This document shows positions 1,148 to 31,160 of a DNA stretch of 36,728 nt, in pieces. The translations under genes and the position numbers were made by a program. Origin of the DNA: Planctomycetota bacterium. GTDB taxonomy: Bacteria; Planctomycetota; PLA2; JAEUHO01. The DNA lies in NCBI GenBank assembly GCA_027625315.1, contig JAQBWE010000003.1:1-36728 (forward strand). Reading direction: 5' to 3'. How positions within the stretch are numbered: position 1 is the first letter of the stretch; each line of letters starts with the position of its first letter. Under the pieces are notes generated by a model. The model was not told where the DNA came from, searched no databases, and saw only the letters and a list, made by a program, of their open reading frames with translations.

Positions 1148-3407
1148 TCCGGTCGCGGTCAGAGCGGCCGCCTTGGAGTATCAACACGCGGTTCCAGCGG
1201 TGCTTGAGCGCTATTGTCTTGAGTGCCATGGAGCCGAGGATCCTGAGGGTGGATTCAGCCTCGGGGCGTATCTGCCCGCGTTAGTCCCACCGGCCGCGGC
1301 GCAGATCCGTTCGTCTACGGCGGTCCTAGAGCGGCTCTCACATCACGTGAGCGGCGGCCTGATGCCGCCTGAGGGCAGTCCTCCCGTCCCTGAGGCGGAG
1401 CGGGAGCGCTTGACTGCTTGGATCGCAACTGCGATCGACCGTGCCTGGGTTGAGGCGGGACCCGATCCGGGTCGCGTGACCATGCGGCGTCTGAGCCGCT
1501 ATGAATACCGCAACACGGTGCGCGACCTGACGGGAGTGGACTATGACCCGAATGTCCGCTTCCCGGCAGACGACGTGGGCTACGGATTCGACCACATCGG
1601 TGACGTGCTGACGTTGCCCCCGGTACTCCTCGAGAAGTACATGGAGGCGGCCGAAGAGATCACGGCGCAGGCTCTCGTGGTTGTGCACGCTGACACGCCC
1701 GATGTGCGCGTGCGCAGGGTCGAGGCGGAGGCCGCTTCGCGAAGCGACGGTGCTGCCCTGGCCGCGGACGGGGTCTCGCTCAACTCAGTGAGCGATGTCT
1801 CAGCAATCCTGGCATTTCCAAGGGCGGGGTACTATCTGCTTCGCGCGCGCGTTCGGCCGACGCAGGCAGGGCCCGATGCTGTGCGGGTGCAGTTCGCGGT
1901 CGAGGACCGGGTCGTCGCCGACTTGCAGGTCGCGGAGCTGACCGGGACAATCGTTGATCGCTCTGTGCGGGTCCGCATGGGACGCGGCCAGCGCCGAATC
2001 TCAGTTCGCTTCCCGAACGATTACTACCAGCCTAATCACCCGGATCGCTCCCAGCGGGATCGGAACCTGTTCGTGGACTGGTTCGAAATCGAGGGTCCGG
2101 AGGAAGTCGAGCAGGGCGTCGAGCTCGACTCATTCCTCCCATGCGAGCCCAAGCCAGGGCGGGAGTCGGAGTGCGCCGAGGCGTACCTTGGGCCCTTGCT
2201 CGCACGCGCATTCCGACGGCCTGCAACGCCAGATGAGTTGCAGCGCTACGTGAGCTTGATGCTTGAGACCGTTGCGGCGGGAGAGTCGTTCGAAGGAGCC
2301 GCTCAGGTTGCGCTGCAGGCAGTACTCGTAGCACCGCAGTTCTTGTTTCGCATTGAGATGGACGCGCCGGGAGCTGACCGCAGCCGACCGCTCAACGATC
2401 ACGAGTTGGCCTCCCGGTTGAGCTACTTCCTTTGGAGCTCGTGCCCAGACGAGGACCTCGCAGCGGCTGCAGACTTGGGGATGCTCCGAGTAACGTTGCA
2501 TGAGCAGGTGGCTCGCATGCTCGCGGATGCGCGCTCACAGTCACTGGTCGAGAACTTCGCCGTTCAGTGGTTGGAGCTTCGCCGACTTGATACGGCCGCG
2601 CCAGATGCGCGACGCTTCAAGGCCTTTGATGAGGCATTGCGGGCCTCCATGCGACGAGAGACCGAGCTCTTTGTCGAGGCGATCATCACTGAGGATCGCA
2701 GCATCCTGGACCTCATCGACGCACCCTTCACGTATCTAAATGAGGCTCTCGCGGCGCACTATGGAATCGGCGGCGTTCAAGGAGACGAGTTCCGGAGGGT
2801 GGACCTGCCTGACGCGCGCCGCGGCGGCCTCCTGGGTCAGGCCTCGATCCTCACACTTACGAGCTTCCCGCACCGCACGTCACCCGTCCTGAGGGGGAAG
2901 TGGGTGCTCGAGGAGATCCTAGGTCAGCCTCCTCCGCCTCCGCCTCCGGGCGTGGGCACGCTAGAAGCCCAACCAACGGAGTTCCTGAAACTCTCGCTGC
3001 GGGAGCGTCTCGCGCGGCACCGGGCGGACCCTGGTTGCGCCGGCTGCCACGACACCATGGACAACCTGGGCTACGGGCTGGAGAACTTCAACGCGATCGG
3101 TGGCTGGCGGACGCGTGATGGCGCGACCACCCTGGACACGCGAGGTCAACTCCCCGATGGCCGTACATTCGAGGGCCCGGCGGAGCTGCGTCGTATCCTG
3201 CGCGCGGACCCGGGCTTCCCTCACTGCTTCGCAGAGAAGCTGCTGACCTACGCGCTGGGGCGTGGCCTGGAGCCCTTCGACCGGCCCGCACTCAAGCAGA
3301 TCACACGCGAAGCCCGGAGAGGTCAACTGCGCTTCTCGGCGTTCGTGCACGCTGTGGTGGCAACCGACGCGTTTACGATGCGTCGTACTCATGGAGAATC
3401 CCGATGA
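1053..3407 (+). CDS. DUF1592/DUF1588/DUF1587/DUF1585/DUF1595 (PSD) family protein with cytochrome c motifs, probable lipoprotein
   Basis: ATG 1053 gives a signal peptide with lipobox-like VLVAC. Heme motifs CLECH and CAGCH; family motifs RRLSRYEYRNTVRDL, ELASRLSYFLWSSCPD, RTSPVLRGKWVLE, EKLLTYALGRGL; an inserted CBM-like segment (FPNDYY...DRNLFVDWFEIEGP). Confidence 0.92.
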   Translation: MQTPTQGWIRLALVALPITAVLVACGQPTTDDPVAVRAAALEYQHAVPAVLERYCLECHGAEDPEGGFSLGAYLPALVPPAAAQIRSSTAVLERLSHHVSGGLMPPEGSPPVPEAERERLTAWIATAIDRAWVEAGPDPGRVTMRRLSRYEYRNTVRDLTGVDYDPNVRFPADDVGYGFDHIGDVLTLPPVLLEKYMEAAEEITAQALVVVHADTPDVRVRRVEAEAASRSDGAALAADGVSLNSVSDVSAILAFPRAGYYLLRARVRPTQAGPDAVRVQFAVEDRVVADLQVAELTGTIVDRSVRVRMGRGQRRISVRFPNDYYQPNHPDRSQRDRNLFVDWFEIEGPEEVEQGVELDSFLPCEPKPGRESECAEAYLGPLLARAFRRPATPDELQRYVSLMLETVAAGESFEGAAQVALQAVLVAPQFLFRIEMDAPGADRSRPLNDHELASRLSYFLWSSCPDEDLAAAADLGMLRVTLHEQVARMLADARSQSLVENFAVQWLELRRLDTAAPDARRFKAFDEALRASMRRETELFVEAIITEDRSILDLIDAPFTYLNEALAAHYGIGGVQGDEFRRVDLPDARRGGLLGQASILTLTSFPHRTSPVLRGKWVLEEILGQPPPPPPPGVGTLEAQPTEFLKLSLRERLARHRADPGCAGCHDTMDNLGYGLENFNAIGGWRTRDGATTLDTRGQLPDGRTFEGPAELRRILRADPGFPHCFAEKLLTYALGRGLEPFDRPALKQITREARRGQLRFSAFVHAVVATDAFTMRRTHGESR

Positions 3408-4792
3408 GCTCGCCCCGGCCGTTTGCCCGGAACCCCCTGAGCCGCCGAACGGTCCTTCGCGGCGTGGGTGCCGCCTTGGCCCTGCCGTGGCTCGAGGGCA
3501 TGAGCGGTGCCATGCGCGCCCTAGCCAGGGCTGAGGATGCACCTGCCCACCCCCGCAGGCTCGCATTCCTGTTCATGCCGAACGGCGCGCACATGGCGGA
3601 TTGGACACCGGCGTTGGAGGGTCGTGCGTTCGCGCTGCCGTGGATCTTGGAGCCGCTCGCGGCGCATCGAGACGACCTCCTTGTGCTGTCCGGACTTGCG
3701 CAGGATCAGGCTCGTGCGCATGGTGACGGGCCCGGCGACCATGCCCGCAGCGCCGCAGTGTTCCTCACAGGCGCGCATCCAGTGAAGACGGGCGGCGCCA
3801 ACCTGAGGGTCGGCGTGTCGGTCGATCAGGTGGCCGCTAGGGTGGTCGGAGCCGAGACTCGGTTCGCTTCGTTGGAGCTCGGCGTTGAGGGCGGCCGCTC
3901 CAATGGCGAGTGTGACTCTGGGTACAGCTGCGCCTACTCGAACAACATCAGCTGGCGCGGCCCTTCAACGCCCAGCTCCAAGGACGTCGATCCGCGAGTT
4001 GTGTTCGAGCGCCTGTTCTTGAATGGGAAGCCCGGGGAGACTGATGCGGCTCGCGAACGCCGCATTCGGCGGCGCAAGAGCATTTTGGATTTCGTGGGCG
4101 AGGACGCGCGTGCACTGAGAGATCGGCTAGGTGTGGCCGATCGGGCTAAGCTCGACGAGTACCTAGCCGGTGTCCGTGAGCTCGAGGCCCGCATCGAGAA
4201 GACGGAGCGGCTCCGCGTTGACCCCACTGGTGCCGCCGCATCGTTTCCAGCCCCTACGATGACACGCGATGCTCTGCGGGAGGATCGGCGCGAACACATT
4301 CGGATCCTCTGCGAGCTCCTCGTCTTGGCCTTTCAGACGGACACGACGCGCGTTGCTACGTTCATGCTCGGGAATGGCGGGAGCAACCTGGCCTATCCCC
4401 AGGCCGATGTTCGGGAAGGGCACCACGGTCTGTCGCATCACGGAAATGACCCAGACAAGATCGAGAAGATTCGGCGGATCAACCGATTCCACATCGAGCA
4501 GTACGCCTACCTCCTCTCGCGGCTCCGCGAGGTTCGGGAGGGAGACGGCACGCTCCTAGACAACTCCCTGATCATGATCGGGAGCGGAATCGGCGACGGG
4601 AATCGGCACAATCACGACGATCTACCCATCCTGCTCGCAGGACGGGGGGGCGGGACTGTGCGGCCGGGGCGCCATGTCGCCTACGCGCGCTCAACGCCGC
4701 TCAACAACTTGTACCTCTCGATGCTCGACATAGCGGGGGCTCCGACGAAGAGCCTCGGGGACGGCACAGGAGCCCTGCCCGGCCTGGGCTAG
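3404..4792 (+). CDS. DUF1552 (HXXSHH) family protein, Tat-like leader
   Basis: LSRRTVLRGVGAALALPWLE leader; CDSGYSCAY and GHHGLSHH motifs; ATGA overlap with the DUF1592 gene, its usual partner. Confidence 0.93.
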   Translation: MSSPRPFARNPLSRRTVLRGVGAALALPWLEGMSGAMRALARAEDAPAHPRRLAFLFMPNGAHMADWTPALEGRAFALPWILEPLAAHRDDLLVLSGLAQDQARAHGDGPGDHARSAAVFLTGAHPVKTGGANLRVGVSVDQVAARVVGAETRFASLELGVEGGRSNGECDSGYSCAYSNNISWRGPSTPSSKDVDPRVVFERLFLNGKPGETDAARERRIRRRKSILDFVGEDARALRDRLGVADRAKLDEYLAGVRELEARIEKTERLRVDPTGAAASFPAPTMTRDALREDRREHIRILCELLVLAFQTDTTRVATFMLGNGGSNLAYPQADVREGHHGLSHHGNDPDKIEKIRRINRFHIEQYAYLLSRLREVREGDGTLLDNSLIMIGSGIGDGNRHNHDDLPILLAGRGGGTVRPGRHVAYARSTPLNNLYLSMLDIAGAPTKSLGDGTGALPGLG

Positions 4793-6993: not shown

Positions 6994-7563
6994 TTAGGAC
7001 CCGGAGAGGACCGTGCCCGTGCGGTGGATGCGTTCGAGGGCGGCGGTGCGATCACGGTCGGTGGGCAAGAGCCAGCGGTCAAACCCCCGTCGCCAGACGC
7101 GACCCGCCGGGGGCCGAGCCCAGCCGTGGTACTCCGTGCCCCGTAGGTACGCCTTGGTTGTGGTGAACTTGAGCCACCTGATGATGACGCGTAGATGCTC
7201 GGGATCATCAAGTGCGGCTTGGGAGGAGGAGAAGAAGCGGACAATGCCGAGGACACCTCTCGGACCGATGGCGAACGGCTCCAAGCGCACATGCAGGTAC
7301 CGCTGGGGGAGCTGATACCAGTAGTGGCGAACTGCGAGGCCAAAGCCCGACAAGGTTCCGAAAGCACCACCCCCGTCGGCCCCCGCGTCGGCCTCGGTGG
7401 CGGAATCGGTGGCGGAATCGGTGGTGGAGCCGCCGCCGGCGCTGTCTGGCGCGTGCGCAAGCAGCCCAGTTACGTGAGGCTCAATCGTGAGCCCTAGCAG
7501 ATACCGCTGCGGAGACGCATGGGCGAACCCGGTGGTCGCAGAACGAGGAGGACCCAAGATCAT
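6994..7563 (-). CDS. Degenerate REP-associated tyrosine transposase (RAYT/Y1 HUH)-like protein lacking catalytic residues
   Basis: Follows the RAYT pattern along its whole length (LSGFGLAVRHYWYQLPQRYLHVRLEPFAIGPRGVLGIV; IIRWLKFTTTKAYLRG...HGW...GRVWRRGF), but PNHxH reads PRGVL and the YIxxNP Tyr region reads RIHRTG. By-eye alignment only. Confidence 0.65.
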   Translation of the reverse strand: MILGPPRSATTGFAHASPQRYLLGLTIEPHVTGLLAHAPDSAGGGSTTDSATDSATEADAGADGGGAFGTLSGFGLAVRHYWYQLPQRYLHVRLEPFAIGPRGVLGIVRFFSSSQAALDDPEHLRVIIRWLKFTTTKAYLRGTEYHGWARPPAGRVWRRGFDRWLLPTDRDRTAALERIHRTGTVLSGS

Positions 7564-7587
7564 GCCAAGCCCTCGCGGCTCGGCATG
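7561..7587 (-). terminator. Stem-loop after the selenoprotein stop, possible terminator or attenuator
   Basis: Minus strand CATGCCGAGCC-GCGAG-GGCTTGGCATG forms an 11-bp stem with one G-U pair, 16 nt after the TAG at 7604. The U-tract is weak (ATCTT), and the 3' arm contains the ATG of the RAYT-like gene. Confidence 0.4.
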
Positions 7588-7603
7588 CGGGGGTCACACT
7601 TGG

Positions 7604-8599
7604 CTACTCAGCAGCTTCGAGCTCCGCGATCAGCGCGGCCGCGGCCTTGCCCGCCCGTGTATCGCGGTAGGACTTCCCCGTCATCGGGGCGAGGGCCTTC
7701 AGGGTCTTCTTGCTGGACATGCCGCGAATCTCCGCGCGGATCTTGGCGAAACGGTCCCCTGCTTTGATCTCGTCCTTCTTCTCGCCATCGGAGAGCAACT
7801 CCGCGGCCAGGCTCGCAGCCCGCTTGCCAATCGCGCTGCCCTTGTAGCCCTTGGAGATGTCCTCGTAGGCGACCCACGCCTCGTAGAAGTCGCCCGCCTC
7901 AGCGGACTTGCCGGCCTCTGTGACGGTCGACTCCGCGTACCACGTGAGCCAGGTGTCAATCTTTGTGGCGACGGCCGCATCGGCTTCTTCGAGCTTGCCG
8001 CCCTCGATCGCCTTGAGTACCGCCGTCTGCGCGTCGGCGAACTTCTCCTTGTCGAACTGCTTGCGCGCACTCGCAAGAGCCTTGGGGAACTCCGGCAGGA
8101 TCTGCGCTTGCTGGAGGGCTTCCTCGATGACGCTGTCTTGGAGGTTGCCGGGGTGACCGGTCCAGAGAATGCGTCCGTCGGGCCCAATGAGGAACGACGA
8201 CGGGTAACTGTTGCACCCGTAGTTGCTCATGCTGTCCGAACTCTCGAGAACGATCGGATGCTTGGCGCCGGTCTCCTCGACGAACTTGTCGACTGCCGCG
8301 CGGTCCTGCTTCGTGATCGCGAGGATCGAGAGACCCTTGTCGGACATCTCCGCGTGCAGCTTGTCCAGGTGAACCACCTGGGTCTTGCAGGGGCCTCACC
8401 CGGTGCTGAAGAGCTCGATGAACACGATTCGGCCGCGCAGCGACTTGAGATCGACCGGCTCCGAGTTGACGAACTCCTTGCCCTCAAAGTCGGCGGCGCG
8501 ATCACCCACGCCGAGGACCACGCCCGCGTGAACGGGGGTGGCAACGGTTAGCGCCAATCCGGCACCGAGCAGCAATCCGAGTGTTCGCAGCGTGCGCAT
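7604..8599 (-). CDS. Exported thioredoxin-fold redoxin (TlpA/AhpC-TSA-like) selenoprotein, U68-G-P-C71 active site, 331 aa
   Basis: ORFs 8396..8599 and 7604..8377 are in one frame: ...RGRIVFIELFSTG-TGA-GPCKTQVVHLDKL. The TGA (8398-8396) sits at the first Cys of CxxC; cis-Pro motif SYPSSFLIGPDGRI; signal peptide ending VHA; GGAGG RBS before ATG 8599. Confidence 0.92.
8365..8381 (-). promoter_or_regulatory. Putative bacterial SECIS hairpin
   Basis: CCAGGTG-GTT-CACCTGG is a perfect 7-bp stem starting 15 nt after the UGA. The apical loop begins G-U at +22, matching the bacterial SECIS consensus. Confidence 0.8.
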
Positions 8600-8663: not shown

Positions 8664-9800
8664 TCAGGGCCTCAGAAGGACCAGGGCCCCAGCTTGGCCC
8701 AGCAGGCCAGCGGAGAGCACGAGGGCACCGGATCCGGGCTCAAGGCTGGCCAGCGCGAGGGCGGCCTCGACGGCGTCGGCCGCCAGGCCGCAATGCCCCA
8801 GCTGGTCCTTGTACGCGCTCCGGCCTACGCCACAGGTCGCGGGCAGCCCATCCAGAGTCCGCTCGAGGTCAGACTGGCCTGCCCCGGGAACGACCACCAC
8901 CGCCAGGTCCTCAGCGACGGCTCCAGCCTCCGCGAGCGCGGCCTCCGCGGCCGAACACAGAGCCAGGGTGGACGGCGCTAGGGAACCGCCCCGCGGCGCA
9001 ACCGTCCGCCCCGCAGAGCCAACCACCACACCGCGGATCAGCGCCCCGCGGGCGAGGGCCTCTGCGCGCCGTTCGAGCACGAATGCCGCGGCACCATCAC
9101 CGGGCGCGAAGGTAAGCCCATGAGCCTGGAGCTCCGCGCGGGCCACTCCCGACGTGGGGCGGGCGGCGCCGAGCACGACCGCGGCGTCAAGTCGCCGCGA
9201 CCGAACGCTACGTACCGCCATGTCGAAACAGGTCCATGTGGGTCCTGCGTAGCCTGCGACGGAGGTGTTCGCACCGCGCAGGCCGTATCCGGTAGCTAGG
9301 AAACTGAACGCATTGTTCTTCAGGCTCTCGAGCATGAAGAACGGCTTGACGTGTCGCGCGGCGGCGCGGTTCAAAACCTGCGCATCGATGTCGGCGTCGA
9401 GATCCTCGGTGGCCGCGCGGAACGCGTTGTGGAACTCAGGGCAACTCCAGTCGTAGCTATCCATCTGGGCTAGGTACAGGCCGCGGCGCGCATCCGGATA
9501 GGGGCTGGCGAGCAAGTTCGACGCTGCCACCGCCTCGGCACAGGCGTCGGCGGCAAGCCGACCCGCGCCGTTGAGGAACTTGATTTGCGGCTCGAGCTCC
9601 TCTGGGACCTTTGAGCGCAAGAGGGGTTCCGCGATGACGGCCGCGCGCGCCATCCCTGACCTAGGCGAGGCGTCGCCCTGCGCCGTAACCGCGCTGCGGC
9701 CCGTCAAGATCGCCGCGTGGCTGCTGGCTAGATCATGGCCAAGCGCCGTCACGCAACCCACGCCGGTGATCACGACGTCGTCGTCTCCGAGCGTTCTCAT
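8664..9800 (-). CDS. Non-catalytic ketosynthase-like protein (chain-length-factor-like)
   Basis: KS fold (VVITGVGCVTALG, GLRGANTS, PGDGAAAFVLE, KDQLGH), but the catalytic Cys position reads VAGYAG and the first His reads VVPGAG. Confidence 0.85.
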   Translation of the reverse strand: MRTLGDDDVVITGVGCVTALGHDLASSHAAILTGRSAVTAQGDASPRSGMARAAVIAEPLLRSKVPEELEPQIKFLNGAGRLAADACAEAVAASNLLASPYPDARRGLYLAQMDSYDWSCPEFHNAFRAATEDLDADIDAQVLNRAAARHVKPFFMLESLKNNAFSFLATGYGLRGANTSVAGYAGPTWTCFDMAVRSVRSRRLDAAVVLGAARPTSGVARAELQAHGLTFAPGDGAAAFVLERRAEALARGALIRGVVVGSAGRTVAPRGGSLAPSTLALCSAAEAALAEAGAVAEDLAVVVVPGAGQSDLERTLDGLPATCGVGRSAYKDQLGHCGLAADAVEAALALASLEPGSGALVLSAGLLGQAGALVLLRP

Positions 9801-10246
9801 GCGCTCGCCCCGCGCAGGACGGCAAAGGCCGCGCGTGCGCGCGCACCGGATTCGAGGCCTTCCAGGGGAATCACGCGCGCTTCAAACTCAATAGCGGCCC
9901 CGCGCTGACCATCCTGGCTGGTTTCGGCGCGGTAGGCGCGTCGCTCTGGGTCGTCGAGCGGCAGGCGCTCGAGGCGAATGTCCACACGATCCCCGGGGAT
10001 GGCGAACTTGTAGTAGCGAGCGCTGCGCACGTGATCGAGCAGCACCCAGTGTGCGAAGTCTGAAGACGCCGCCTCGAGCCAGCCGGCCAGCTGCGCGCAC
10101 GCCTCAAGGATCAACATGCCAGGCAGAATGGGGCGCTCGGGAAAATGCCACTCGAGGTAGTCCTCGCTCATGGCCACAGTCTTGAAGCCCTCGATACTCG
10201 TGTCGGGCGTCAGCGCCACGATGCGGTCAACGAGCAGAAATCTCAC
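9797..10246 (-). CDS. FabZ/FabA-like 3-hydroxyacyl-ACP dehydratase
   Basis: MRFLLVDRI; HFPERPILPGMLILEACAQ with catalytic His and Glu. Confidence 0.9.
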   Translation of the reverse strand: MRFLLVDRIVALTPDTSIEGFKTVAMSEDYLEWHFPERPILPGMLILEACAQLAGWLEAASSDFAHWVLLDHVRSARYYKFAIPGDRVDIRLERLPLDDPERRAYRAETSQDGQRGAAIEFEARVIPLEGLESGARARAAFAVLRGASA

Positions 10247-10650
10247 GATGCCTCCTTCGTGACCATGATGACCGACGCCAGCGCGTGGTCTCCATCGTGG
10301 GTGAGCGAAACTGTGGAGTCGGCGACTCCTAGCCGCTGGGCGTGCTCCGCGGGCTTGCCGTGCAGGGTTAGATGGGGGGCCGTCCCGCGGCGCACAACTT
10401 CGATGTCTTTCAGCTTGGGATCCACACCAGTAGGGGAGATCCCCAGGCCGAGCGCTTTTAGTGCGGCCTCCTTGGCGGCGAACCGCGCGGCGTAGTGCGG
10501 GACAGGGTTCGGAAGCCGATCGCAGTAAGCACGCTCAGCATCCGTAAACAGGCGCGCGGTGAGCTCGGGCTGGCGCGCGAGCAGGTCCGCGAACTTAGGC
10601 ACGTAGACCAAGTCGATTCCGTGGCGGAGGCGGGTGTGTGTCGTACTCAT
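10243..10650 (-). CDS. acpS: Holo-ACP synthase (4'-phosphopantetheinyl transferase)
   Basis: GIDLV, LFTDAERAYC, AARFAAKEAALKALG, VSLTHD. Confidence 0.95.
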   Translation of the reverse strand: MSTTHTRLRHGIDLVYVPKFADLLARQPELTARLFTDAERAYCDRLPNPVPHYAARFAAKEAALKALGLGISPTGVDPKLKDIEVVRRGTAPHLTLHGKPAEHAQRLGVADSTVSLTHDGDHALASVIMVTKEAS

Positions 10651-11402
10651 GCGATCGACAGTCCGCCGTCCACGACCAAGGCTTGGCCTGTGATGTACGC
10701 CGCCGCTTCAGATGCGAGGAAGGCGACGAGGCACGCCACGTCCTCGGGCTGCCCAAACCGTGCCTGGGGGATCTGCGCAAGCACTGTGTCGCCCGCGCGC
10801 CGCTGGATCACCTGGGTCATGTCCGTCTCGATAAAGCCGGGGAGGACGGCGTTCACGCGCACGCCCCGATCCGCGACCTCCAAGGCCGCAGCGCGGGTAA
10901 GTCCGAGCACGCCCGCCTTCGCCGCCGCGTAGTTGGCCTGACCGCGTCCACCGCGTAGGGCCTGGATTGACGCCAGATTCACGATGCTGCCCTTGCGGGC
11001 GCGCATCATGCTCCGGAGTGCCAAGCGCGTCGTGCGCATGAGTCCAGTGAGGTTGACGTCGATCACACGCTGCCAGTCGGCGTCGCGCATCGTGACAAGC
11101 AGCCCGTCCTTCACGACGCCCGCGTTGTTGATCAGAATGTCCAGATCGCCGTGCTGCTTGAGCACACCAGCGAAGAGCGCCTCTGTGCTCTCGGCGTCAC
11201 CGATGTCGCCCTGGACGGCCACCGCGTGACCTCCGGCGTCGAGGATCGACTTCGTTACGGCGTGCGCCTCTGCTTCGGAGGATCGGTAGTTCACGATGAC
11301 GTGCGCACCGCTCGCGCCGAGGCGACGCGCGATGGCCGCGCCGATACCGCGACCCGCACCCGTGACGAGGGCGACCTTGCCGCCTAGATCTACGCGAATC
11401 AT
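10647..11402 (-). CDS. fabG: 3-oxoacyl-ACP reductase (SDR)
   Basis: TGAGRGIG, NNAG, GQANYAAAKAG (YxxxK), PGFIETDMT. Confidence 0.92.
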   Translation of the reverse strand: MIRVDLGGKVALVTGAGRGIGAAIARRLGASGAHVIVNYRSSEAEAHAVTKSILDAGGHAVAVQGDIGDAESTEALFAGVLKQHGDLDILINNAGVVKDGLLVTMRDADWQRVIDVNLTGLMRTTRLALRSMMRARKGSIVNLASIQALRGGRGQANYAAAKAGVLGLTRAAALEVADRGVRVNAVLPGFIETDMTQVIQRRAGDTVLAQIPQARFGQPEDVACLVAFLASEAAAYITGQALVVDGGLSIA

Positions 11403-12694
11403 GCGTCCTCCTCTGCGGTGTACTTCTTCACCACGATGCAGGCGTTCTGACCGCCGAATGCGAAACTGTTGTTGAGGGCCGCGCGCACGGGCAACGCGCG
11501 ACCGCGGCCCGGGACCAAGTCGACATCGCAGCCCCGGTCGGGATGCTCGAGATTGGCCGTCGGCGGTACGGCATCCTCCTGGACAGCCTTCACACAGCAG
11601 CAGAACGCGACGCCAGCCGCGGCCGAGAGTAGATGCCCGAAGGCGCCCTTGCTGCTCGACACGGCGACGGTCGCGGCGTGCTCACCCAGCACGGCCTTGA
11701 TGGCCGTGATCTCGGCCGGGTCGTTGCGCTTCGTGCCGGTGCCGTGAGCGTTCACGAAGGCGACGTCGGCGGGGGAGACGGCGCCGTCCTCTAGGGCGTA
11801 CCGCATGGCCTCCTCTGCGCCGCGTCCGTCCGGCGGCGGGGCCGTCGTGCGAAAGGCATCCAGAGAGGCGCCGTAGCCCGCGACTTCCGCCAGGATGGTC
11901 GCCCCGCGAGCGCGCGCATGGTCGAGGGACTCCAAGACGACGACACCCGCTCCCTCGCCCATCACGAGGCCGGAACGCCGGCGATCAAACGGCCGGCAGG
12001 CCGAAGCGGGATCGTCATCGTCCACCTGCGCGGAAGCGCCCAGGAGAACGAAGAAGACCATTCCGAGCGGGTTGATCTGTGAATCGGAGCCGCCCGCCAG
12101 CACCCAATCGGTCTCGCCCGATCGCACGCTCCGCCACGCCATACCAAGCGCTTGGTTCGAGGCAGAGCAAGCCGTGGTGACCGCGTGGACGGGACCGCCG
12201 ATGCCGTAACGCGACGCGACGCAGGCGGCGGGCTGCTCCGCGGGCGCCCGCAGGATCGACTCCTGCTCAAGGTCCTTCAGCTGCCCGGCGAAGCGCACGG
12301 CGTCGAAGCGGCCGTCGGCATCCAGACAGCGCGCCACATCCTCAATCCGACTCGCCCCAGGTCCAGCACCGAGCATCACGCCGGCCCGAGGATGGTTCCC
12401 GGCCTCGAGTCCGGCGTGGGCGAGCGCTCGCCTTGAGGCCGCCAGCGCGAAGAGCGTGCGGGGGTCGACGAGGCGGGCCGCGTCGGGGCCCGCGCCCTCC
12501 GCTGCTTCCGCCCGCAGTGCGGCCACGACCTCGGGGGCGATCTCTCCGACGGCGCGGGTGGGCGGCCCATGCGGACCGAGCCGCTGCGGCGCAGCGACGC
12601 CGCGCTCGCCGGCCAACAAACGCTTCCACGCGGCGTCGATGTCACACCCCAAGGGCGTCACAATCCCCAGACCCGTGACCACGACGCGGCGCAT
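11399..12694 (-). CDS. Beta-ketoacyl-ACP synthase (FabF-like), catalytically intact
   Basis: Start ATG 12694 (MRRVVVTGLG) overlaps the upstream TGA. Cys-His-His triad: TACSAS, NAHGTGT, GHLLSAA; NSFAFGGQN. Confidence 0.93.
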   Translation of the reverse strand: MRRVVVTGLGIVTPLGCDIDAAWKRLLAGERGVAAPQRLGPHGPPTRAVGEIAPEVVAALRAEAAEGAGPDAARLVDPRTLFALAASRRALAHAGLEAGNHPRAGVMLGAGPGASRIEDVARCLDADGRFDAVRFAGQLKDLEQESILRAPAEQPAACVASRYGIGGPVHAVTTACSASNQALGMAWRSVRSGETDWVLAGGSDSQINPLGMVFFVLLGASAQVDDDDPASACRPFDRRRSGLVMGEGAGVVVLESLDHARARGATILAEVAGYGASLDAFRTTAPPPDGRGAEEAMRYALEDGAVSPADVAFVNAHGTGTKRNDPAEITAIKAVLGEHAATVAVSSSKGAFGHLLSAAAGVAFCCCVKAVQEDAVPPTANLEHPDRGCDVDLVPGRGRALPVRAALNNSFAFGGQNACIVVKKYTAEEDA

Positions 12695-13131
12695 CACGGC
12701 GTGCCGCCGTAGTACCGGAAGCGCTCGCGCATGACGTCGGGCTCTGGCGCGGGCACATGGGCGTACAGGATCCGCCCCGCGCTCGCCACGCGCACGCCGT
12801 CTACCTCGCAGTACGCACTGGCCATGGAGCCCTTCGGATTGGTTCCCCGCAGCTCGCCGACGATCTTCAGGGTTGTCCCCGGAGCCAAGTCCGCGGGCAG
12901 GGCAACATCTTCCAAGACGGAGAGTACGAGCGACACACCGTAGTTGTGACCGGCAATGGCCGTCCACGCGGTGAGCTGCAGCATGCTCTCAAGGACGAGC
13001 GAAGCGGGGTAGAGCGCCCGGCGCGGGAAGTGCTCCTTGAGCGCCTCGTCGGCCAGGGTGATGCACTTCACGCCCTCGATGCGACGCCCGGGCTCGAAGT
13101 GTGTGACGCGGTCGAAGAGCAGGAATCTCAT
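12694..13131 (-). CDS. Second FabZ-like dehydratase
   Basis: MRFLLFDRV; EHFPRRALYPASLVLESMLQ hot-dog motif. Confidence 0.85.
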   Translation of the reverse strand: MRFLLFDRVTHFEPGRRIEGVKCITLADEALKEHFPRRALYPASLVLESMLQLTAWTAIAGHNYGVSLVLSVLEDVALPADLAPGTTLKIVGELRGTNPKGSMASAYCEVDGVRVASAGRILYAHVPAPEPDVMRERFRYYGGTP

Positions 13132-14219
13132 GCGACCTCCACCAGCAAGGCCGCGGTGCCACCGCGCGAGCCACTTGCGAGAATGAGCGCGCAGCCGGGC
13201 TCGGCACGCAGCGCTACCTGCGCAAGTGCGAGATCGATCGCCGGCGCGGCCGTGCCGGCGTGCCCCAGGTGGCGCTTGGTGTGCACGGCGCGCGCGCCCG
13301 CGAGCCCCTGCGCGGCGACCGCGGCAAGCTCCTCGTCGTCATCGGCTCCGTGATGGAAGACGAACCGACACGACGACGCGCTGCGCTGACCCTCCGCGAG
13401 CGCCGCGATCATGGCGCGGCTCATGGCCGCGGCGTCGGGGCCTTGGCCGGAACGCGGGCCGAACGCACTGCCGCCTCCAAGGATGCGCAGCGTGCCGACG
13501 ACATCCGACTCGTGACGGACGAGCGCGCAGGCCCCAGCGCCTTCGGCGGGGGCCACACCTAGCAGTTGGCCCTCCAGCGCGAGTCGAGCCAGGGTGGCGG
13601 GCGTGATGCGACCCGAGGCGCCCCCCGCGAGGGCCGCATCGCAGTCACCCCGCGCCACACTCCGCGCGGCCTCAAGTAGCGCGCGCAGTCCTGCATCCGC
13701 GTCGGCGGACAGTACGAGGTTGTCGCCGCGAATATCGAGATCGATGGCGACCTGGCCGACGGCCACATTGCCGAGCATCGAGAGGGGCCAGAGCGGGTGC
13801 ACGGAACGGTAGCCCCCCGCGAAGAACGCGGAGAGCGAGAAGGCTCCGGTGGCGTCGCGCGAAGCCTGCGCGGCAGCTGCGAGATCGTGGACGGCGGCAT
13901 CGACCATGCCCATACCGACAAACAGCCCGACGCGCTCGCGCGGCACGGTCGCCAAACCGCCTGCGCTGTGCGCGGCGCGGCTGACGGCCTCGAACAAACG
14001 ACCGTGCGGGCCTAGGATGCGCAGCGCCGGGTCGTCCTCCGCATCCTCAGGCTCGTGCCACACCTGCGCCGCGCTGGGCGCTCCGAACCCGGAGGCATCG
14101 AAGCCCTCGATCGGGGCGAGGGCGGTGGCACCCGAGACGACGCGCTGCCAAACTTCGCGGGGATCGTCCCCGAGCGCTGTGCGCAGTGCAGTGGCGGTGA
14201 CGGCAACGTCCAGGGCCAC
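13128..14219 (-). CDS. Second non-catalytic ketosynthase-like protein (CLF-like)
   Basis: KS fold (HPLWPLSMLGN, IRGDNL, PAEGAGA, KRHLGHAG), but the Cys site reads LSADADAG. Confidence 0.85.
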   Translation of the reverse strand: MALDVAVTATALRTALGDDPREVWQRVVSGATALAPIEGFDASGFGAPSAAQVWHEPEDAEDDPALRILGPHGRLFEAVSRAAHSAGGLATVPRERVGLFVGMGMVDAAVHDLAAAAQASRDATGAFSLSAFFAGGYRSVHPLWPLSMLGNVAVGQVAIDLDIRGDNLVLSADADAGLRALLEAARSVARGDCDAALAGGASGRITPATLARLALEGQLLGVAPAEGAGACALVRHESDVVGTLRILGGGSAFGPRSGQGPDAAAMSRAMIAALAEGQRSASSCRFVFHHGADDDEELAAVAAQGLAGARAVHTKRHLGHAGTAAPAIDLALAQVALRAEPGCALILASGSRGGTAALLVEVA

Positions 14220-14318
14220 GCTAGCCGACTCGCTTCAGGCTGGGGCCGACGTATCGGCTGTGAAGTCCCACAAGGCGTCGGACCGCGGGTTCCTGCCGGC
14301 GCCTCGGAGCCATGGGGG

Positions 14319-15605
14319 CTACTTCCCTCCGGCAAGGGCGCGGGCGGCGGAGCCCAAGCAAACGCACGCGTTCTGGCCGCCGAAGCCGAAGGAGTTGGAG
14401 AGCGCGACATGGTGCTCGCGAGCGCGCGCCGCGTTGGGAACGTAGTCCAAATCGCAGCGCCGATCGGGCGCCTCCTGATTGATCGTCGGCAGCAACATGC
14501 CCGCCTGCATTCCCTTGAGCGTCAAGATGGCTTCAATCGCGCCCGCGGCACCGATGGTGTGGCCGATCATGGACTTGTTCGATGAAATGGGCACCTCGGC
14601 CGCGCGGTCACCGAACACGCGCTTGCACGCCATGGTCTCGGTCGGATCGTTGATGGGGGTGGACGTGCCGTGGGCGTTGACGTACTCGACGTCGGCCGGC
14701 GTCAGCCCGGCGTCGTCAATCGCGGCGCGCATGGCTCGTACGGCGCCGTCGGCCTCCGGGTGCATATCCGTGATGCGGTAGCCGTCGGCCGAGTCACCGT
14801 ACCCAAGGATCTCACCGAGGATCGGGCGTCCGCGAGCGAGCGCATGCTCGCGCGTCTCAAGCACGAGGATCCCGGCTCCTTCCCCGATCACGAAGCCGTT
14901 GCGACGGCGATCAAATGGCCGCGAGGCCTGCTCGGGCGAGGGATAGCGGCGCGAGAGGGCTCCGAGAATGGCGAAGCCGAGGTAGTAGGAGAACGACAGA
15001 AGCGGCTCTCCGCCGCCGGCGATGACGACATCGGCGCGACCCTCGCGCAGCAAGCGCAAACCCTCGCCCATTGCTTGCGAGCCCGCCGCGCACGCCGAGA
15101 CGATCGGAAACACAGGGCCCTGTGCGTCCAACAGATGAGCGAGCAGAGTCGGCGCGGTCTCGGGTGAGCGCGTGGTGAACTCGGAGGCGTCAAAGCGCGG
15201 ATCCGCACGGAGCGCGTCGACGTTCACTTGCCCATCTTCGCGCGCGTGGCGAGTCATGAGTTGAATCACGTCGCGATCCGGCACGCGCCCGTGGCCGCCA
15301 ATGGCGACGGCGATACGCTCGCGATCGGTGACCTCGTCCAATGCGGCCGTTCGCAAGGCCTCAGCCGCTGCGTGGCGGAGCAGGCGCAACTCCGTACCCC
15401 CGACCGCGTCAGAGGGATGCGCGGGAATCAGCCGGTCGACATCGATCTGAGCGCCGATGTCACAGGGCAGCCCTGTTGCGTCGAACCGCGTGAGGTGACG
15501 GACGCCCGAGCGTCCAGCCCGCATCGCCTCGAACGTCTCGTCGACGCTCGCTCCGAGGGCTGTGATCATCCCCCAACCGGTTACGACGACGCGGCGATCA
15601 GGCAT
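14319..15605 (-). CDS. Beta-ketoacyl-ACP synthase (FabF-like), catalytically intact
   Basis: MPDRRVVVTGWG; SACAAG, NAHGTST, GHTIGAAG, SNSFGFGGQN; ATG 15605 overlaps the end of the ACP gene. Confidence 0.94.
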   Translation of the reverse strand: MPDRRVVVTGWGMITALGASVDETFEAMRAGRSGVRHLTRFDATGLPCDIGAQIDVDRLIPAHPSDAVGGTELRLLRHAAAEALRTAALDEVTDRERIAVAIGGHGRVPDRDVIQLMTRHAREDGQVNVDALRADPRFDASEFTTRSPETAPTLLAHLLDAQGPVFPIVSACAAGSQAMGEGLRLLREGRADVVIAGGGEPLLSFSYYLGFAILGALSRRYPSPEQASRPFDRRRNGFVIGEGAGILVLETREHALARGRPILGEILGYGDSADGYRITDMHPEADGAVRAMRAAIDDAGLTPADVEYVNAHGTSTPINDPTETMACKRVFGDRAAEVPISSNKSMIGHTIGAAGAIEAILTLKGMQAGMLLPTINQEAPDRRCDLDYVPNAARAREHHVALSNSFGFGGQNACVCLGSAARALAGGK

Positions 15606-16167
15606 TGGCAAAGAGCTGCTTCTCGCGCTGCATATCGTGGATCCAGCGCTTGGTCAGCTCGTCGCCGTCGGGGTACTCCGCGTCCTTGCCACACCCCCCG
15701 CAGGCGACCTTGGTGCTGTCGTCGCTCTTCCACGAGGCGGCGCTGCACGCCGGACAGGCGTCGGGAAGATGGGCGATGATCTTCTCGACGGCGGTCGCGA
15801 TGGAACCTGGCGTGACGACGGCCGGCACCTCATCGGCGTATATGCCGGCCTTGATGCTCTCAGCCTCCGGGAACTGCTCGCGCAGCAGAGCGGCGGCGCC
15901 GGCGGTGATCTTGTTGTCACGGTCGATGGCGGTGCCCTCGCCGAGTTCCTCCTCAACGTGATCCAGCAGGAGCTGGCTTGCGAGGCGGATGCCGAAGACC
16001 TGCTCGAGCCGGAAATTGATGTCGAGGAAGTCGATCGAGGTGGCGCCCAGGTCGTTGATGATCGACTGCTCCATGCCGATGCCGTTCGCATCGATCCGCA
16101 GCGTCGTCGCCAGGGCAGCGCGGACCTCCTGGTCGATACGCTCGCGCGTCACAAGGGAATTGGCCAT
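15598..16167 (-). CDS. Extended acyl carrier protein with C-terminal CxxC-x14-CxxC putative zinc ribbon
   Basis: DLGATSIDFLDINFRLEQVFGI (Ser44 phosphopantetheine site); 189 aa; CPAC (138-141) and CGGC (156-159); GGAGG RBS. Confidence 0.88.
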   Translation of the reverse strand: MANSLVTRERIDQEVRAALATTLRIDANGIGMEQSIINDLGATSIDFLDINFRLEQVFGIRLASQLLLDHVEEELGEGTAIDRDNKITAGAAALLREQFPEAESIKAGIYADEVPAVVTPGSIATAVEKIIAHLPDACPACSAASWKSDDSTKVACGGCGKDAEYPDGDELTKRWIHDMQREKQLFANA

Positions 16168-16196
16168 CTCGTGTTCGCCTCCGGTTTGTAGGGTTC

Positions 16197-16225
16197 GGTG
16201 TACCCCGTTGTGCGCCCATTCGCAA
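16197..16225 (-). promoter_or_regulatory. Possible internal sigma70-type promoter for the ACP-KS operon
   Basis: TTGCGA-N17-TACACC on the minus strand in the gap upstream of the ACP gene; the -10 element is imperfect. Confidence 0.35.
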
Positions 16226-16301
16226 AATCGGGGTCGGGGGATTCTCCCCGCTGGCCGGGTCGCGGCTGCACCCGCGTACGCACGGCCACGGGATCACAGG
16301 C

Positions 16302-17066
16302 TCACGGGGATCGCAGGATCCTGTTGGAGAGACCGCGGTCGACGATGAGCGTCTGCCCCCCGATGGCGCGCGCTTCGTCCGAGCACAGGAAGGCGGTCAC
16401 GTCGGCGACCTCCTCCGGCGTGACGTAGGCCTCTTCTGGCAGCGCGGCCAGCTCGGGCCACAGTCGCCGCAGGGTCTTGTAGCTGTCGGTCTTGACGAGG
16501 CCGGCGCAGACCGCGTTGGCCTCGATTCCCTGAGGCCGCAGCTCTTCAGACCACTGGCGCACCATGGCCTCCATCGCGGCCTTGATGGGTCCGAGCGGGT
16601 ACTGCGCGTTCATGTAGCGCGAGCCGAGGCTGGAGATGAACACGATGCGGCCCCCGCCGCGTTCAAGCAGGGGCAGGGCCTTCTGCACACAGAACAAATG
16701 GCCCAGCAAGTTGGTATCGACCAGGAGTCGCAGATCGCGCTCTAGCAGCCGCGTGGTGTCCTTGAACGGCGCCCGAGCCGCGTTCAGGATCAAGAAATCA
16801 AGGCCTCCGAGACCGGCCTCGATCTGCTCAACGGCCGCCGCGACCTCGTCCTTGCGGGCGATGTCGGCCGCGACGCAGACGGCACGCCGACCGAGTCCTC
16901 GGATCTCATCGGCGAGTTCCTCGGCCAAGCGCCGCGACGGTCCGTCGGCCGAACGACCGTGCAGGGCTAGGTCGGCCCCGTCGCGAGCGAGGCGCAGGGC
17001 GATGGCCCGACCGATGCCGCGCGTGCTACCCGTGACCCAGGCGATCTTCCCGTCGAAGCGTTGCAT
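16302..17066 (-). CDS. SDR oxidoreductase, FabL-like enoyl-ACP reductase
   Basis: Start MQRFDGKIAWVTGSTRGIG (ATG 17066). NAA motif and ISSLGSRY...YPLGPIKAAMEAMVR resemble FabL (ISSLGSIRY...YTTVGVSKAALEALTR) more than FabG. Confidence 0.78.
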   Translation of the reverse strand: MQRFDGKIAWVTGSTRGIGRAIALRLARDGADLALHGRSADGPSRRLAEELADEIRGLGRRAVCVAADIARKDEVAAAVEQIEAGLGGLDFLILNAARAPFKDTTRLLERDLRLLVDTNLLGHLFCVQKALPLLERGGGRIVFISSLGSRYMNAQYPLGPIKAAMEAMVRQWSEELRPQGIEANAVCAGLVKTDSYKTLRRLWPELAALPEEAYVTPEEVADVTAFLCSDEARAIGGQTLIVDRGLSNRILRSP

Positions 17067-17157: not shown

Positions 17158-18300
17158 ATGGATACGGAGCAGGTCACGCGTCGGGTCACATCCGGCCGCA
17201 AGCTGGACATCCTGCTGGGCGCCATCGAGGAAGGCCGGGAGCCCAAGCCGGACTGGATTGATCTCGAGGGCAAGTGCGATCCCGCGAGTCTCTCGGACGC
17301 GGATCTGCGGGCCGTGGTGAGCCGGATGCACGGGTGCGTCCTGCGCGGCTTTCGTGCCAACGAGGTACGGGTCAAGGGCCGCCGCAGGCTCCTTGCCTAC
17401 TGGAAGGCGCTCGCGCAGTCGGGGTTCCACGACTTCGGTGAGGATCGCTGGATGAAGCAGTACGACTCCCCGTTCATCGAGAGCTACGACTATATCTCGG
17501 CGTACCAGGAGGGTGGCATCGACGCCCTCGATCCCTACATGGTGTACTCGTCGGTGCTGGGCACTTGGGAGTACTCGGTTGAGGACTTCATCAGCACGCG
17601 GCTGGGGGAGAGCATCGGCACGATCGTTGAACCGCTCGCGGGCACGGCCGAGTTCTCCTACGCCGGGCACTTTCGTCACCCCGAGCTGAAGTACGTGATG
17701 TTTGACCTTGACCACGAGGCAAAGCAGCACGTCGAGGGCAAGCCGTGGCTGGCGGGGACGGAGCGTGCGTTTCTCATTGGCGACGCGCTCGTCGAGTCGA
17801 CCTGGGAGTCCGTACGCGCAGCCAGCGTCGGGCGCTCGCTCGCCTACATCGGCAAGCAGAGCCAGAACTTCTTCAAGGCCAAGGAGCTGCTTCAGGTCCT
17901 CGAGTGGGGAACGAGGCACGTGGACTACCTCATGCTGGAGGTGTCTGAGCCGTACCTGCTCGACGAAGAGCCGTCCATCGACGACCTCACGCGACCCGAG
18001 CAAAAGGCTGCGGGCTTCCACGTCGCGCTGGATGACGTCGACGACATCATCCCGAACCCGCTTACCAATCGATTGGACTTCTACCTGATCGCGTGGGACG
18101 AAGAGCGGCGGCGCAACCTGTTCTCCTATTGCGACTGGGTCGGCTGGCAGGCGCCCACCTTGACGGCCCTCGCCCGACTGCTCGACCTCGACGTGCGCTA
18201 CTATCACGATGCGAAGCTCGACTTCCTGCCGGTGGAGCTGGATGTCGAGACGTCTGAGGTCCGCTGCAACAACACGTTCATGCTGTTCAGCCGGCGGTAG
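17158..18300 (+). CDS. Hypothetical protein, probable class I SAM-dependent methyltransferase fold
   Basis: Strong coding bias; motif-I-like IVEPLAGTAEF, acidic beta2 end YVMFDLD, and IGDAL. Divergent from the FAS/PKS cluster. Confidence 0.6.
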   Translation: MDTEQVTRRVTSGRKLDILLGAIEEGREPKPDWIDLEGKCDPASLSDADLRAVVSRMHGCVLRGFRANEVRVKGRRRLLAYWKALAQSGFHDFGEDRWMKQYDSPFIESYDYISAYQEGGIDALDPYMVYSSVLGTWEYSVEDFISTRLGESIGTIVEPLAGTAEFSYAGHFRHPELKYVMFDLDHEAKQHVEGKPWLAGTERAFLIGDALVESTWESVRAASVGRSLAYIGKQSQNFFKAKELLQVLEWGTRHVDYLMLEVSEPYLLDEEPSIDDLTRPEQKAAGFHVALDDVDDIIPNPLTNRLDFYLIAWDEERRRNLFSYCDWVGWQAPTLTALARLLDLDVRYYHDAKLDFLPVELDVETSEVRCNNTFMLFSRR

Positions 18301-31028: not shown

Positions 31029-31160
31029 GCGCGCACGATACCCACCCGCGGGGGCCTCTCCAAAGCGGGCGCTCGGGTCGATCCGGCTGACCGTCCGCGG
31101 GTGCTACCGGATGGCGCCGAGCCCTGCGATGATGCGCGCCGCGCTCCGGGAGAACACCGC

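Follow-up and report, generated by a model that had tools for sequence, protein, structure and literature searches.

The stretch of DNA considered here (the window, 36,728 nucleotides) is the entire 36.7-kb contig JAQBWE010000003.1 (C136) of a 3.2-Mb, 92%-complete metagenome-assembled genome (MAG) of a planctomycete (GenBank assembly GCA_027625315.1). The closest homologues come from MAGs labelled Planctomycetota. In this analysis, we mainly focus on a ten-gene operon in it, which resembles a type II fatty acid synthase (FAS II) and includes an oversized acyl carrier protein (ACP), along with its distribution among related and distant bacteria; the family of the source planctomycete is referred to as the host family, and 16 further genomes of that family were sampled. 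The operon comprises ten open reading frames (ORFs) at positions 8664-17066, all on the minus strand and with zero internal stops, whose identities were assigned by Pfam and NCBIfam searches, each assignment being confirmed for all ten. Starting from the first gene, it encodes an enoyl-ACP reductase (ER), the ACP, an active ketosynthase (KS1), a ketosynthase-like protein without the catalytic cysteine (KS0-1, here also labelled after the chain length factors, CLF), a dehydratase (DH1), KS2, a ketoreductase (KR), the phosphopantetheinyl transferase AcpS, DH2, and KS0-2:

16302..17066, minus strand: ER, FabL-like, of the short-chain dehydrogenase/reductase type, 254 aa, first gene (PF13561, 174 bits)
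15598..16167, minus strand: oversized ACP, 189 aa, with Ser44, an insert, and a four-cysteine zinc ribbon plus helix (PF00550, residues 13-70)
14319..15605, minus strand: KS1, ketosynthase with Cys-His-Lys-His (TIGR03150, 402.8 bits, below cut-off)
13128..14219, minus strand: KS0-1 (CLF1), ketosynthase-like, without the catalytic Cys (PF00109, N-terminal part only, 64 bits)
12694..13131, minus strand: DH1, FabZ-like, with His and Glu kept (HFPRRALYPASLVLE) (PF07977, 38 bits)
11399..12694, minus strand: KS2, second ketosynthase with Cys-His-Lys-His (TIGR03150, 390.3 bits, below cut-off)
10647..11402, minus strand: KR, FabG-type 3-oxoacyl-ACP reductase (TIGR01830, 297.9 bits)
10243..10650, minus strand: AcpS-type phosphopantetheinyl transferase (PF01648, 58 bits)
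9797..10246, minus strand: DH2, FabZ-like, with the canonical HFPxxPxxPGxLxxE motif (PF07977, 56 bits)
8664..9800, minus strand: KS0-2 (CLF2), without the Cys, the first His also being gone in the host family (PF00109, 35 bits)

Both the ORF coordinates and the domain matches bear out the gene order and the minus-strand, ten-gene layout given in a preliminary description made from the DNA letters alone. That description had also called the genes mostly translationally coupled, and neighbouring genes indeed overlap by 1-8 nt at seven of the nine junctions, the other two being gaps of 134 nt (ER to ACP) and 99 nt (KS1 to KS0-1). As it had further stated for the cluster itself, no gene for FabD, FabH, a ligase, a thioesterase, an acyltransferase, or a radical S-adenosylmethionine (SAM) enzyme is present, and none lies beside the cluster within the window. 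A promoter and terminator scan returned zero promoter-like and two terminator-like sites, fewer than in shuffled sequence. Judged by their domains, the ten genes cover every step of a full reductive elongation cycle, plus the carrier and its activation.

The ACP has 189 aa, compared with ~90 aa for an ordinary ACP. An insert of ~50 residues separates helix II from the last ACP helix, and the C-terminal part consists of a CxxC-x14-CxxC zinc ribbon and then one more helix. The protein also contains the motif DLGATSIDFLDI that had been pointed out beforehand. A search of 5.8 billion proteins yielded 160 clusters of ACP homologues, nearly all of 187-191 aa; in an alignment of 34 homologues, S44, C138, C141, and C156 do not vary, and the conservation of C159 is 90% or higher. 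The AlphaFold2 model built from the homologue alignment is one compact fold (predicted local distance difference test score, pLDDT, 93.2; predicted template modelling score, pTM, 0.88), and a Foldseek search of the Protein Data Bank (PDB) matched it to ACPs only, over about one third of the model (query TM-score up to 0.35). When 1.84 billion representative sequences were searched with a profile, 315 proteins were found (E<=1e-10), in two groups, namely full-length proteins of ~180-210 aa and proteins of ~130 aa that have the insert and lack the ribbon. The top NCBIfam ACP model was NF005079, which we take to be the model for AcpXL, at 35.4 bits over residues 15-73 only and below the cut-off of 83, while AcpM matched only at E 0.2-0.4. 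Both the best sequence match in the PDB and the longest structural overlap were to RPA2022, a specialised ACP of R. palustris, which is an AcpXL whose structure comes from Ramelot 2012, as cited in the available part of PMC9234698. No published description of a zinc-ribbon ACP or of the ten-gene operon was found in the literature searched.

The four KS-family proteins comprise two that keep the Cys-His-His residues (KS1 and KS2) and two that lack the Cys, as had been recognised at the outset. In an alignment covering 23 loci, Cys, His, Lys, and His are invariant in KS1 (22 rows) and in all KS2 rows, while the Cys site of KS0-1 is Ala or Gly followed by Asp (SADADAG in the host window) and that of KS0-2 is Ser in most other phyla, where both His residues are kept. 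The replacement is therefore Ala in the window and Ala, Gly, or Ser in relatives, and never Gln, the residue typical of aromatic CLFs at this position. None of the four reaches the cut-off of the FabF model TIGR03150 (493.75 bits), on which KS1 and KS2 score 402.8 and 390.3 bits and KS0-1 and KS0-2 score 66.1 and 57.4 bits. The best PDB match of KS1 is FabF (1j3n, 312 bits), compared with 213.5 bits for the actinorhodin KS (1tqy_A), 207.8 bits for 6kxd (deposited as 'Ketosynthase'), and 204.9 bits for 6smo_B, the last two being presumably the ishigamide and aryl-polyene KSs, respectively. A further match, 9s5h_B ('3-oxoacyl-ACP synthase', 274 bits), is presumably the anammox protein. The Cys-less proteins match the PDB weakly (at most 39 bits for KS0-1 and 32 bits for KS0-2), with no specific match of either to solved CLFs in that search. 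In a maximum-likelihood tree of 99 KS-family proteins, KS1, KS2, KS0-1, and KS0-2 form four clades (99%, 98%, 95%, and 99% support, respectively), each spanning the host family, other phyla, and Nocardia, with housekeeping FabF and the KSs of simpler planctomycete clusters (see below) falling outside them, which indicates that the four-gene KS set is old and travels as a unit.

Among the remaining enzymes, the ER had been described as FabL-like, which holds for its best model and its best PDB match: the FabL model NF005975 leads by 50 bits, and 3oic (enoyl-ACP reductase [NADPH]) scores 126 bits, compared with 111 bits for FabG. Formal membership in the FabL family does not follow, since the score of 190.3 bits lies below the cut-off of 328. 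The KR just reaches the FabG model TIGR01830 (297.9 bits, cut-off 297.75), and AcpS exceeds the cut-offs of both TIGR00516 (61.2 vs. 59.8 bits) and PF01648 (58 vs. 25 bits). By motif comparison, the catalytic His and Glu of FabZ are kept in both dehydratases, which stay below the cut-off of the FabZ model TIGR01750 (155 bits) with 48.9 (DH1) and 75.6 bits (DH2); DH1 scores 49-57 bits on FabZ models, all under their cut-offs, and the best PDB match of DH2 is FabZ 4zw0 (58 bits).

The host genome carries housekeeping FAS II genes elsewhere, including a plsX-fabD-fabG-acpP-fabF cluster on contig C195 (its FabF scoring 587.8 bits, above cut-off), a FabH-like gene on contig C13, and lpxC followed by fabZ on contig C40. 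These genes rule out that the ten-gene operon is the primary FAS II locus, and the self-contained system proposed earlier is thus a second, FAS-like system and not the only one in the genome. The view that it has its own AcpS stands only in part: the gene does lie in the operon, but it is the only PF01648 gene found in the 92%-complete assembly and may be the general AcpS, serving the housekeeping AcpP as well. This sole AcpS, together with the KR that reaches the FabG cut-off, would suit an alternative in which the operon is a redundant or condition-specific copy of ordinary FAS, or a synthase of cofactor precursors (octanoyl- or pimeloyl-ACP), with no special product. We consider this highly improbable, given that KS1, KS2, both dehydratases, the ER, and the ACP all score below the cut-offs of housekeeping models, that two dead KS homologues and the 189-aa ACP are conserved across phyla, and that a second, stand-alone AcpS is present in two relatives (G148 and G279).

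In a search of 401 Planctomycetota genomes, the full-length ACP was found in the host and in all 16 other host-family genomes, and outside this family only partial matches were detected (residues ~5-105 or 5-130). The ten-gene order is identical in all nine host-family loci that lie on long contigs, except that AcpS is absent in one, and the ER is the first gene in all nine as well as in the loci of other phyla. Among these nine loci, only those of the four closest relatives have the operon between a gene for a 380-aa protein and a thioredoxin-fold ORF, which adjoin it nowhere in other phyla; both genes were accordingly rejected as parts of the system, and the ten genes are taken to be the conserved unit. 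The distribution beyond Planctomycetota was surveyed with the ACP alignment as query and one genome per species (593 relatives, 80 loci kept), the gene order in other phyla being mapped by tblastn and ORF mapping. Among the MAGs, full-length zinc-ribbon ACPs are encoded in those labelled Nitrospirota (Thermodesulfovibrionia, Nitrospiraceae), Binatia, Acidobacteriota (Acidiferrales), NC10, and Nitrospinota, as well as in Syntrophobacteraceae, other 'delta proteobacteria', and one gammaproteobacterium MAG. The same operon order is present in at least six other phyla (Nitrospirota, Thermodesulfobacteriota, Acidobacteriota, Binatota, NC10, and Nitrospinota), and three loci have a reduced operon consisting of KS1, DH1, DH2, the last KS0, and an acyltransferase gene, in part with KR and AcpS between the dehydratases. 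No close synteny to any characterised cluster was found, in line with the earlier suggestion that it is a candidate for an undescribed pathway.

Outside the host family, the operon is linked to a gene of the LpxL family of acyltransferases (PF03279), which directly follows the last KS0 in all 16 complete loci; three further loci end before the last KS0 and are excluded from this count, and three of the 16 acyltransferases, checked by Pfam, score 136-141 bits. Within the host family, the arrangement varies. A Pfam scan of the flanks of five more distant loci found PF03279 directly after the last KS0 in one, and tblastn of nine loci located an acyltransferase in five (three downstream on the same strand, two upstream and divergent), with an additional locus (L041, genome G025) lacking it. 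The host genome itself has an orthologue on contig C88 (40% identity), located beside a DUF374 gene and near BacA, and phylogenetic analysis places the C88 protein inside a 100%-supported clade of operon-linked host-family copies, apart from the two other paralogues of the host genome. In 6 of the 16 host-family genomes, the gene for the best match to it is found at a distance of 1-7 kb from that for the ACP, in two arrangements. The absence of an acyltransferase asserted in the preliminary description is therefore correct for the window, whereas the genome has such an orthologue on C88, whose counterparts are operon-linked in relatives. Acyltransferases of the C88 type are present in all 16 host-family genomes (at least 197 bits; best match outside the family, 141.6 bits), a co-occurrence to which little weight is given because kin share genes anyway. 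Some other neighbours were also recorded: in two loci (Binatia and Acidiferrales), the gene immediately upstream of that for the ER encodes LptD, and the acyltransferase gene is followed by a stand-alone condensation-domain gene in three loci, by DUF374, Rce1-like, EEP, and PAP2 genes in one, by a methyltransferase gene in one, and by a squalene-hopene cyclase gene in one. The host genome has LpxC and WaaA, implying that the organism makes lipid A.

Several characterised systems share parts of this organisation. In rhizobia, the cluster acpXL-fabZXL-fabF2XL-fabF1XL-adhA2XL-lpxXL makes the very-long-chain fatty acid of lipid A, according to the available text of PMC11901934. Like it, the planctomycete operon exists beside a normal FAS II and encodes a dedicated ACP whose helix II is of the DSLDFLDI type, together with a dehydratase of its own and at least two KS-family proteins; in the operon's relatives, an LpxL-family acyltransferase at the operon end is a further shared feature. 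It differs in the size and architecture of the ACP (189 aa with insert and zinc ribbon, compared with ~100 aa for AcpXL), in having four KS-family genes (two of them dead), two dehydratases, and its own KR, ER, and AcpS, in lacking an Adh gene, in the unlinked acyltransferase of the host, and in its hosts, which are Planctomycetota and other environmental phyla. The acid characteristic of the rhizobial cluster is an (omega-1)-hydroxy C26-C34 acid borne by lipid A. The operon thus resembles the rhizobial AcpXL/LpxXL route in logic and, by its gene content, is not a member of it.

In anammox planctomycetes, Cluster I is reported to consist of amxACP, amxFabZ, amxFabF2, amxFabFmut, a phytoene-dehydrogenase-like gene (PDH), and a B12-binding radical SAM gene (available text of PMC10139942), and FabF2 and FabFmut make up a KS/CLF-like heterodimer, which initiates synthesis through decarboxylation of malonyl-ACP, as stated in the accessible part of bioRxiv 10.64898/2026.05.19.726425. 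A planctomycete host, a dedicated ACP, a FabZ variant, and active plus dead FabF homologues are common to both systems. On the other hand, neither a phytoene-dehydrogenase-like nor a radical SAM gene is present in the operon or anywhere in the window, and the operon has KR, ER, and AcpS and a different ACP architecture. The meromycolate FAS-II of mycobacteria comprises KasA/KasB, HadAB/HadBC, MabA, InhA, and AcpM; it likewise includes a KR and an ER of its own besides two KSs, heteromeric dehydratases, and a C-terminally extended ACP, but it has no dead KS partner, and the extension of AcpM has no zinc ribbon.

A simpler DH-ACP-DH-KS(-KS) cluster, with a ~130-aa ACP that has the insert and lacks the zinc ribbon, was observed in many other planctomycetes (loci L023-L033 and L081-L117), for example in all 20 genomes of one family (f5). 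One such DH-ACP-DH-KS locus (L099) comes from a MAG labelled Candidatus Kuenenia stuttgartiensis; its KS is nearly identical to that of the Pirellulales locus L101 (branch lengths 0.008 and 0.013), and its layout is the same as that of L100 in the tblastn map. This near-identity to loci of Pirellulales MAGs suggests mis-binning, and a direct link to the anammox amxACP was not established.

Aryl-polyene (Ape) and ishigamide systems consist of discrete proteins, among them KS/CLF-type pairs with an additional KS, dehydratases in pairs, and a single KR. The operon's combination of a KS with a Cys-less KS, an extra KS, two dehydratases, and one KR resembles these gene sets, as far as their accessible descriptions and general knowledge of them go, and the KR scores 247.9 bits on the flexirubin reductase model NF053542 (cut-off 340). 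It could thus be argued that the operon is a highly reducing type II polyketide synthase (PKS) that makes a polyene or partly unsaturated chain, with the ER acting in some cycles only and the acyltransferase anchoring the chain to a lipid. We regard this as improbable for several reasons. In every version from a diderm phylum, the operon starts with a conserved ER gene, KS1 is nearer to FabF than to PKS/polyene-type KSs (312 vs. 205-214 bits), and neither KS0 has a specific CLF match or the Gln of aromatic CLFs. Moreover, no gene for an ammonia lyase, an adenylating enzyme, a thioesterase, a LolA-like protein, or an MMPL exporter was seen in the scanned flanks, that is, none of the starter-unit, thioesterase, and export genes of Ape/ishigamide-type systems. 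In the available part of a catalogue of type II PKSs (PMC10132072), a CLF clade is described as unexplored and as coming mainly from bacteria other than actinobacteria, Nitrospirae and Planctomycetes among them, and this clade may include genes of such operons. The preliminary description had offered both analogies and held that the operon fully matches neither; the family thresholds of both the AcpXL and the polyene systems are indeed not reached. Of the two, the AcpXL-like, envelope-directed side is now favoured over the polyene side, in view of the ER as first gene in nearly all versions, the KSs nearer to FabF, and the terminal LpxL-family gene.

Taken together, these observations lead us to propose, with about even confidence, that the operon encodes a dedicated, self-priming type II synthase that builds a special acyl chain on its own carrier, and that an LpxL-like enzyme transfers this chain to lipid A or another envelope glycolipid. 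The KS and KS0 proteins would form heterodimers like KS/CLF pairs and, by analogy with anammox FabF2/FabFmut, would be self-priming through decarboxylation of malonyl-ACP, which would account for the absence of FabH from the operon, the malonyl groups being presumably supplied by the housekeeping FabD. Neighbouring KS and KS0 genes had been paired with each other in the preliminary description, but this pairing is not secure: the reduced operons retain only KS1 and the last KS0, suggesting that these two may be the core pair, with KS0-1 and KS2 possibly forming an additional pair that would act from a different chain length onward, a two-stage elongation such as the preliminary description had proposed. 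DH1 and DH2, which always occur together, may form a heterodimer. The conserved ER argues for a largely saturated chain, and the LpxL-family enzyme at the operon end for a role of the acyl-ACP as acyl donor to lipid A or another envelope glycolipid. The product would be kept on the special ACP until it is moved to this acceptor by the acyltransferase, which would be the enzyme encoded on C88 in the host and by the last operon gene in relatives.

A related alternative is that the special fatty acid made by the operon is destined for a different lipid, for instance a phospholipid, an ornithine lipid, or one linked to a hopanoid, and that the adjoining acyltransferase serves an acceptor other than lipid A or is not the exit step; it differs from acylation of an envelope glycolipid in the acceptor only. 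The PF03279 family includes enzymes that do not act on lipid A, among them phosphatidylinositol mannoside (PIM) and lysophospholipid acyltransferases; the top model of one operon-linked copy is the PIM acyltransferase model NF005919, and no copy reaches a curated cut-off. The condensation-domain, methyltransferase, and squalene-hopene cyclase genes found after the acyltransferase in some loci point in the same direction, as does a variant of the operon in Nocardia genomes that carry no MAG label and apparently come from cultured strains (L070-L074); this variant must serve another acceptor. It has a zinc-ribbon-type ACP (27-29% identical), four KS-family genes, two dehydratases, KR, ER, and AcpS. 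A radical SAM gene is located within the cluster, and upstream of it are genes for an FAD-monooxygenase, a methyltransferase, and a class-III aminotransferase; the variant contains no LpxL-like acyltransferase gene, and Nocardia, to our knowledge, makes no lipid A. By contrast, the LptD, DUF374, and PAP2 neighbours point to lipopolysaccharide, and the form that ends with the acyltransferase is carried by members of diderm phyla only, so that the alternative acceptor appears rather unlikely overall.

Along with the Nocardia variant and the non-lipid A members of PF03279, a number of further observations weigh against the transfer of the operon's product to lipid A by an LpxL-like enzyme. No acyltransferase adjoins the operon in the window, and the linked LpxXL gene of the rhizobial type is thus missing there; in 10 of the 16 host-family genomes the C88-type gene lies on another contig. 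Identity between the acyltransferases of the host family and their counterparts in other phyla is only 24-31%, and the two sets do not group together to the exclusion of the host's other paralogues, which implies that the acyltransferase may have been recruited twice or that the tree is unreliable. The margin by which the ACP matches AcpXL over ordinary ACPs is small (29 vs. 28 bits). Seven Nitrospirota loci (L042, L044, L045, L047, L051, L055, and L077) contain only a trio of ER, zinc-ribbon ACP, and KS1, and the Nocardia and Nitrospiraceae variants together show that the ACP-KS core can serve other ends. Finally, only DNA sequencing runs, one of them possibly the source sample, and no RNA run were found to contain the stretch. 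As separate observations on the trio loci, a B12-binding radical SAM gene is located ~3 kb downstream of the trio in L045, and an MlaCDEF set lies near it, on the opposite strand, in L077.

The remaining genes of the window were surveyed as well. The 380-aa protein (17158-18300, plus strand) is encoded divergently from the operon and has no Pfam or NCBIfam match, while its homologues form at least 327 clusters and are ~50% identical even in a MAG labelled Deltaproteobacteria. In its AlphaFold2 model (pLDDT 88.4), an additional N-terminal domain precedes the C-terminal two thirds, which fold like a class I SAM methyltransferase, and Foldseek matches of this fold reach E 3e-10 to CypM and others. 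Downstream of the operon, the thioredoxin/AhpC-TSA-fold ORF (7604-8377, minus strand; a 257-aa frame) holds only the C-terminal half of the domain, and an overlapping 105-aa frame (8227-8544, minus strand) may hold the rest, so a frameshift or a wrong start is possible; a plus-strand ORF at 7487-8551 was rejected as a neighbouring gene because its translation looks off-frame, the real gene probably being the one at 7604-8377. Two pyridoxal phosphate (PLP) enzymes, encoded ~2 kb apart on the plus strand (30663-32360 and 34616-35707), have guanitoxin-pathway families as their best NCBIfam models, the aldolase scoring above the GntG-family cut-off (391.7 vs. 230 bits) and the aminotransferase below that of GntC (299 vs. 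415 bits). They probably belong to ordinary amino-acid metabolism, and the aminotransferase at 30663-32360, which had been considered as a serine-palmitoyltransferase-like lipid enzyme, is instead a general aspartate-family aminotransferase. At the other end of the window, a planctomycete-type pair consisting of a PSCyt/PSD gene (DUF1592/1588/1587/1585/1595) and a DUF1552 gene (906-4792, plus strand) is followed by a glucose/sorbosone dehydrogenase gene (to 6984, plus strand) with a weak C-terminal cytochrome c match (19.9 bits, cut-off 27).

If a dedicated synthase does supply an LpxL-like enzyme with a special acyl chain, the operon may represent an undescribed, phylum-spanning pathway with a new class of carrier, in which the KS/dead-KS pairs act as successive gates of chain length and the chain installed on lipid A is non-standard, perhaps very long or even membrane-spanning. 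This fuller proposal is put forward tentatively, as one that may well prove wrong. Should it hold, many uncultured diderms would have an outer membrane reinforced in a rhizobium-like manner by enzymes that are not orthologues of the rhizobial ones. Such a pathway would explain outer-membrane tailoring in hard-to-culture nitrite oxidisers, syntrophs, NC10 methanotrophs, and planctomycetes, and its lipid product could serve as a biomarker. It would also add a new ACP class, twice the usual length and with a metal site integrated in its fold, and would offer a natural example of a fully reducing synthase whose chain length is governed by dead ketosynthase partners.

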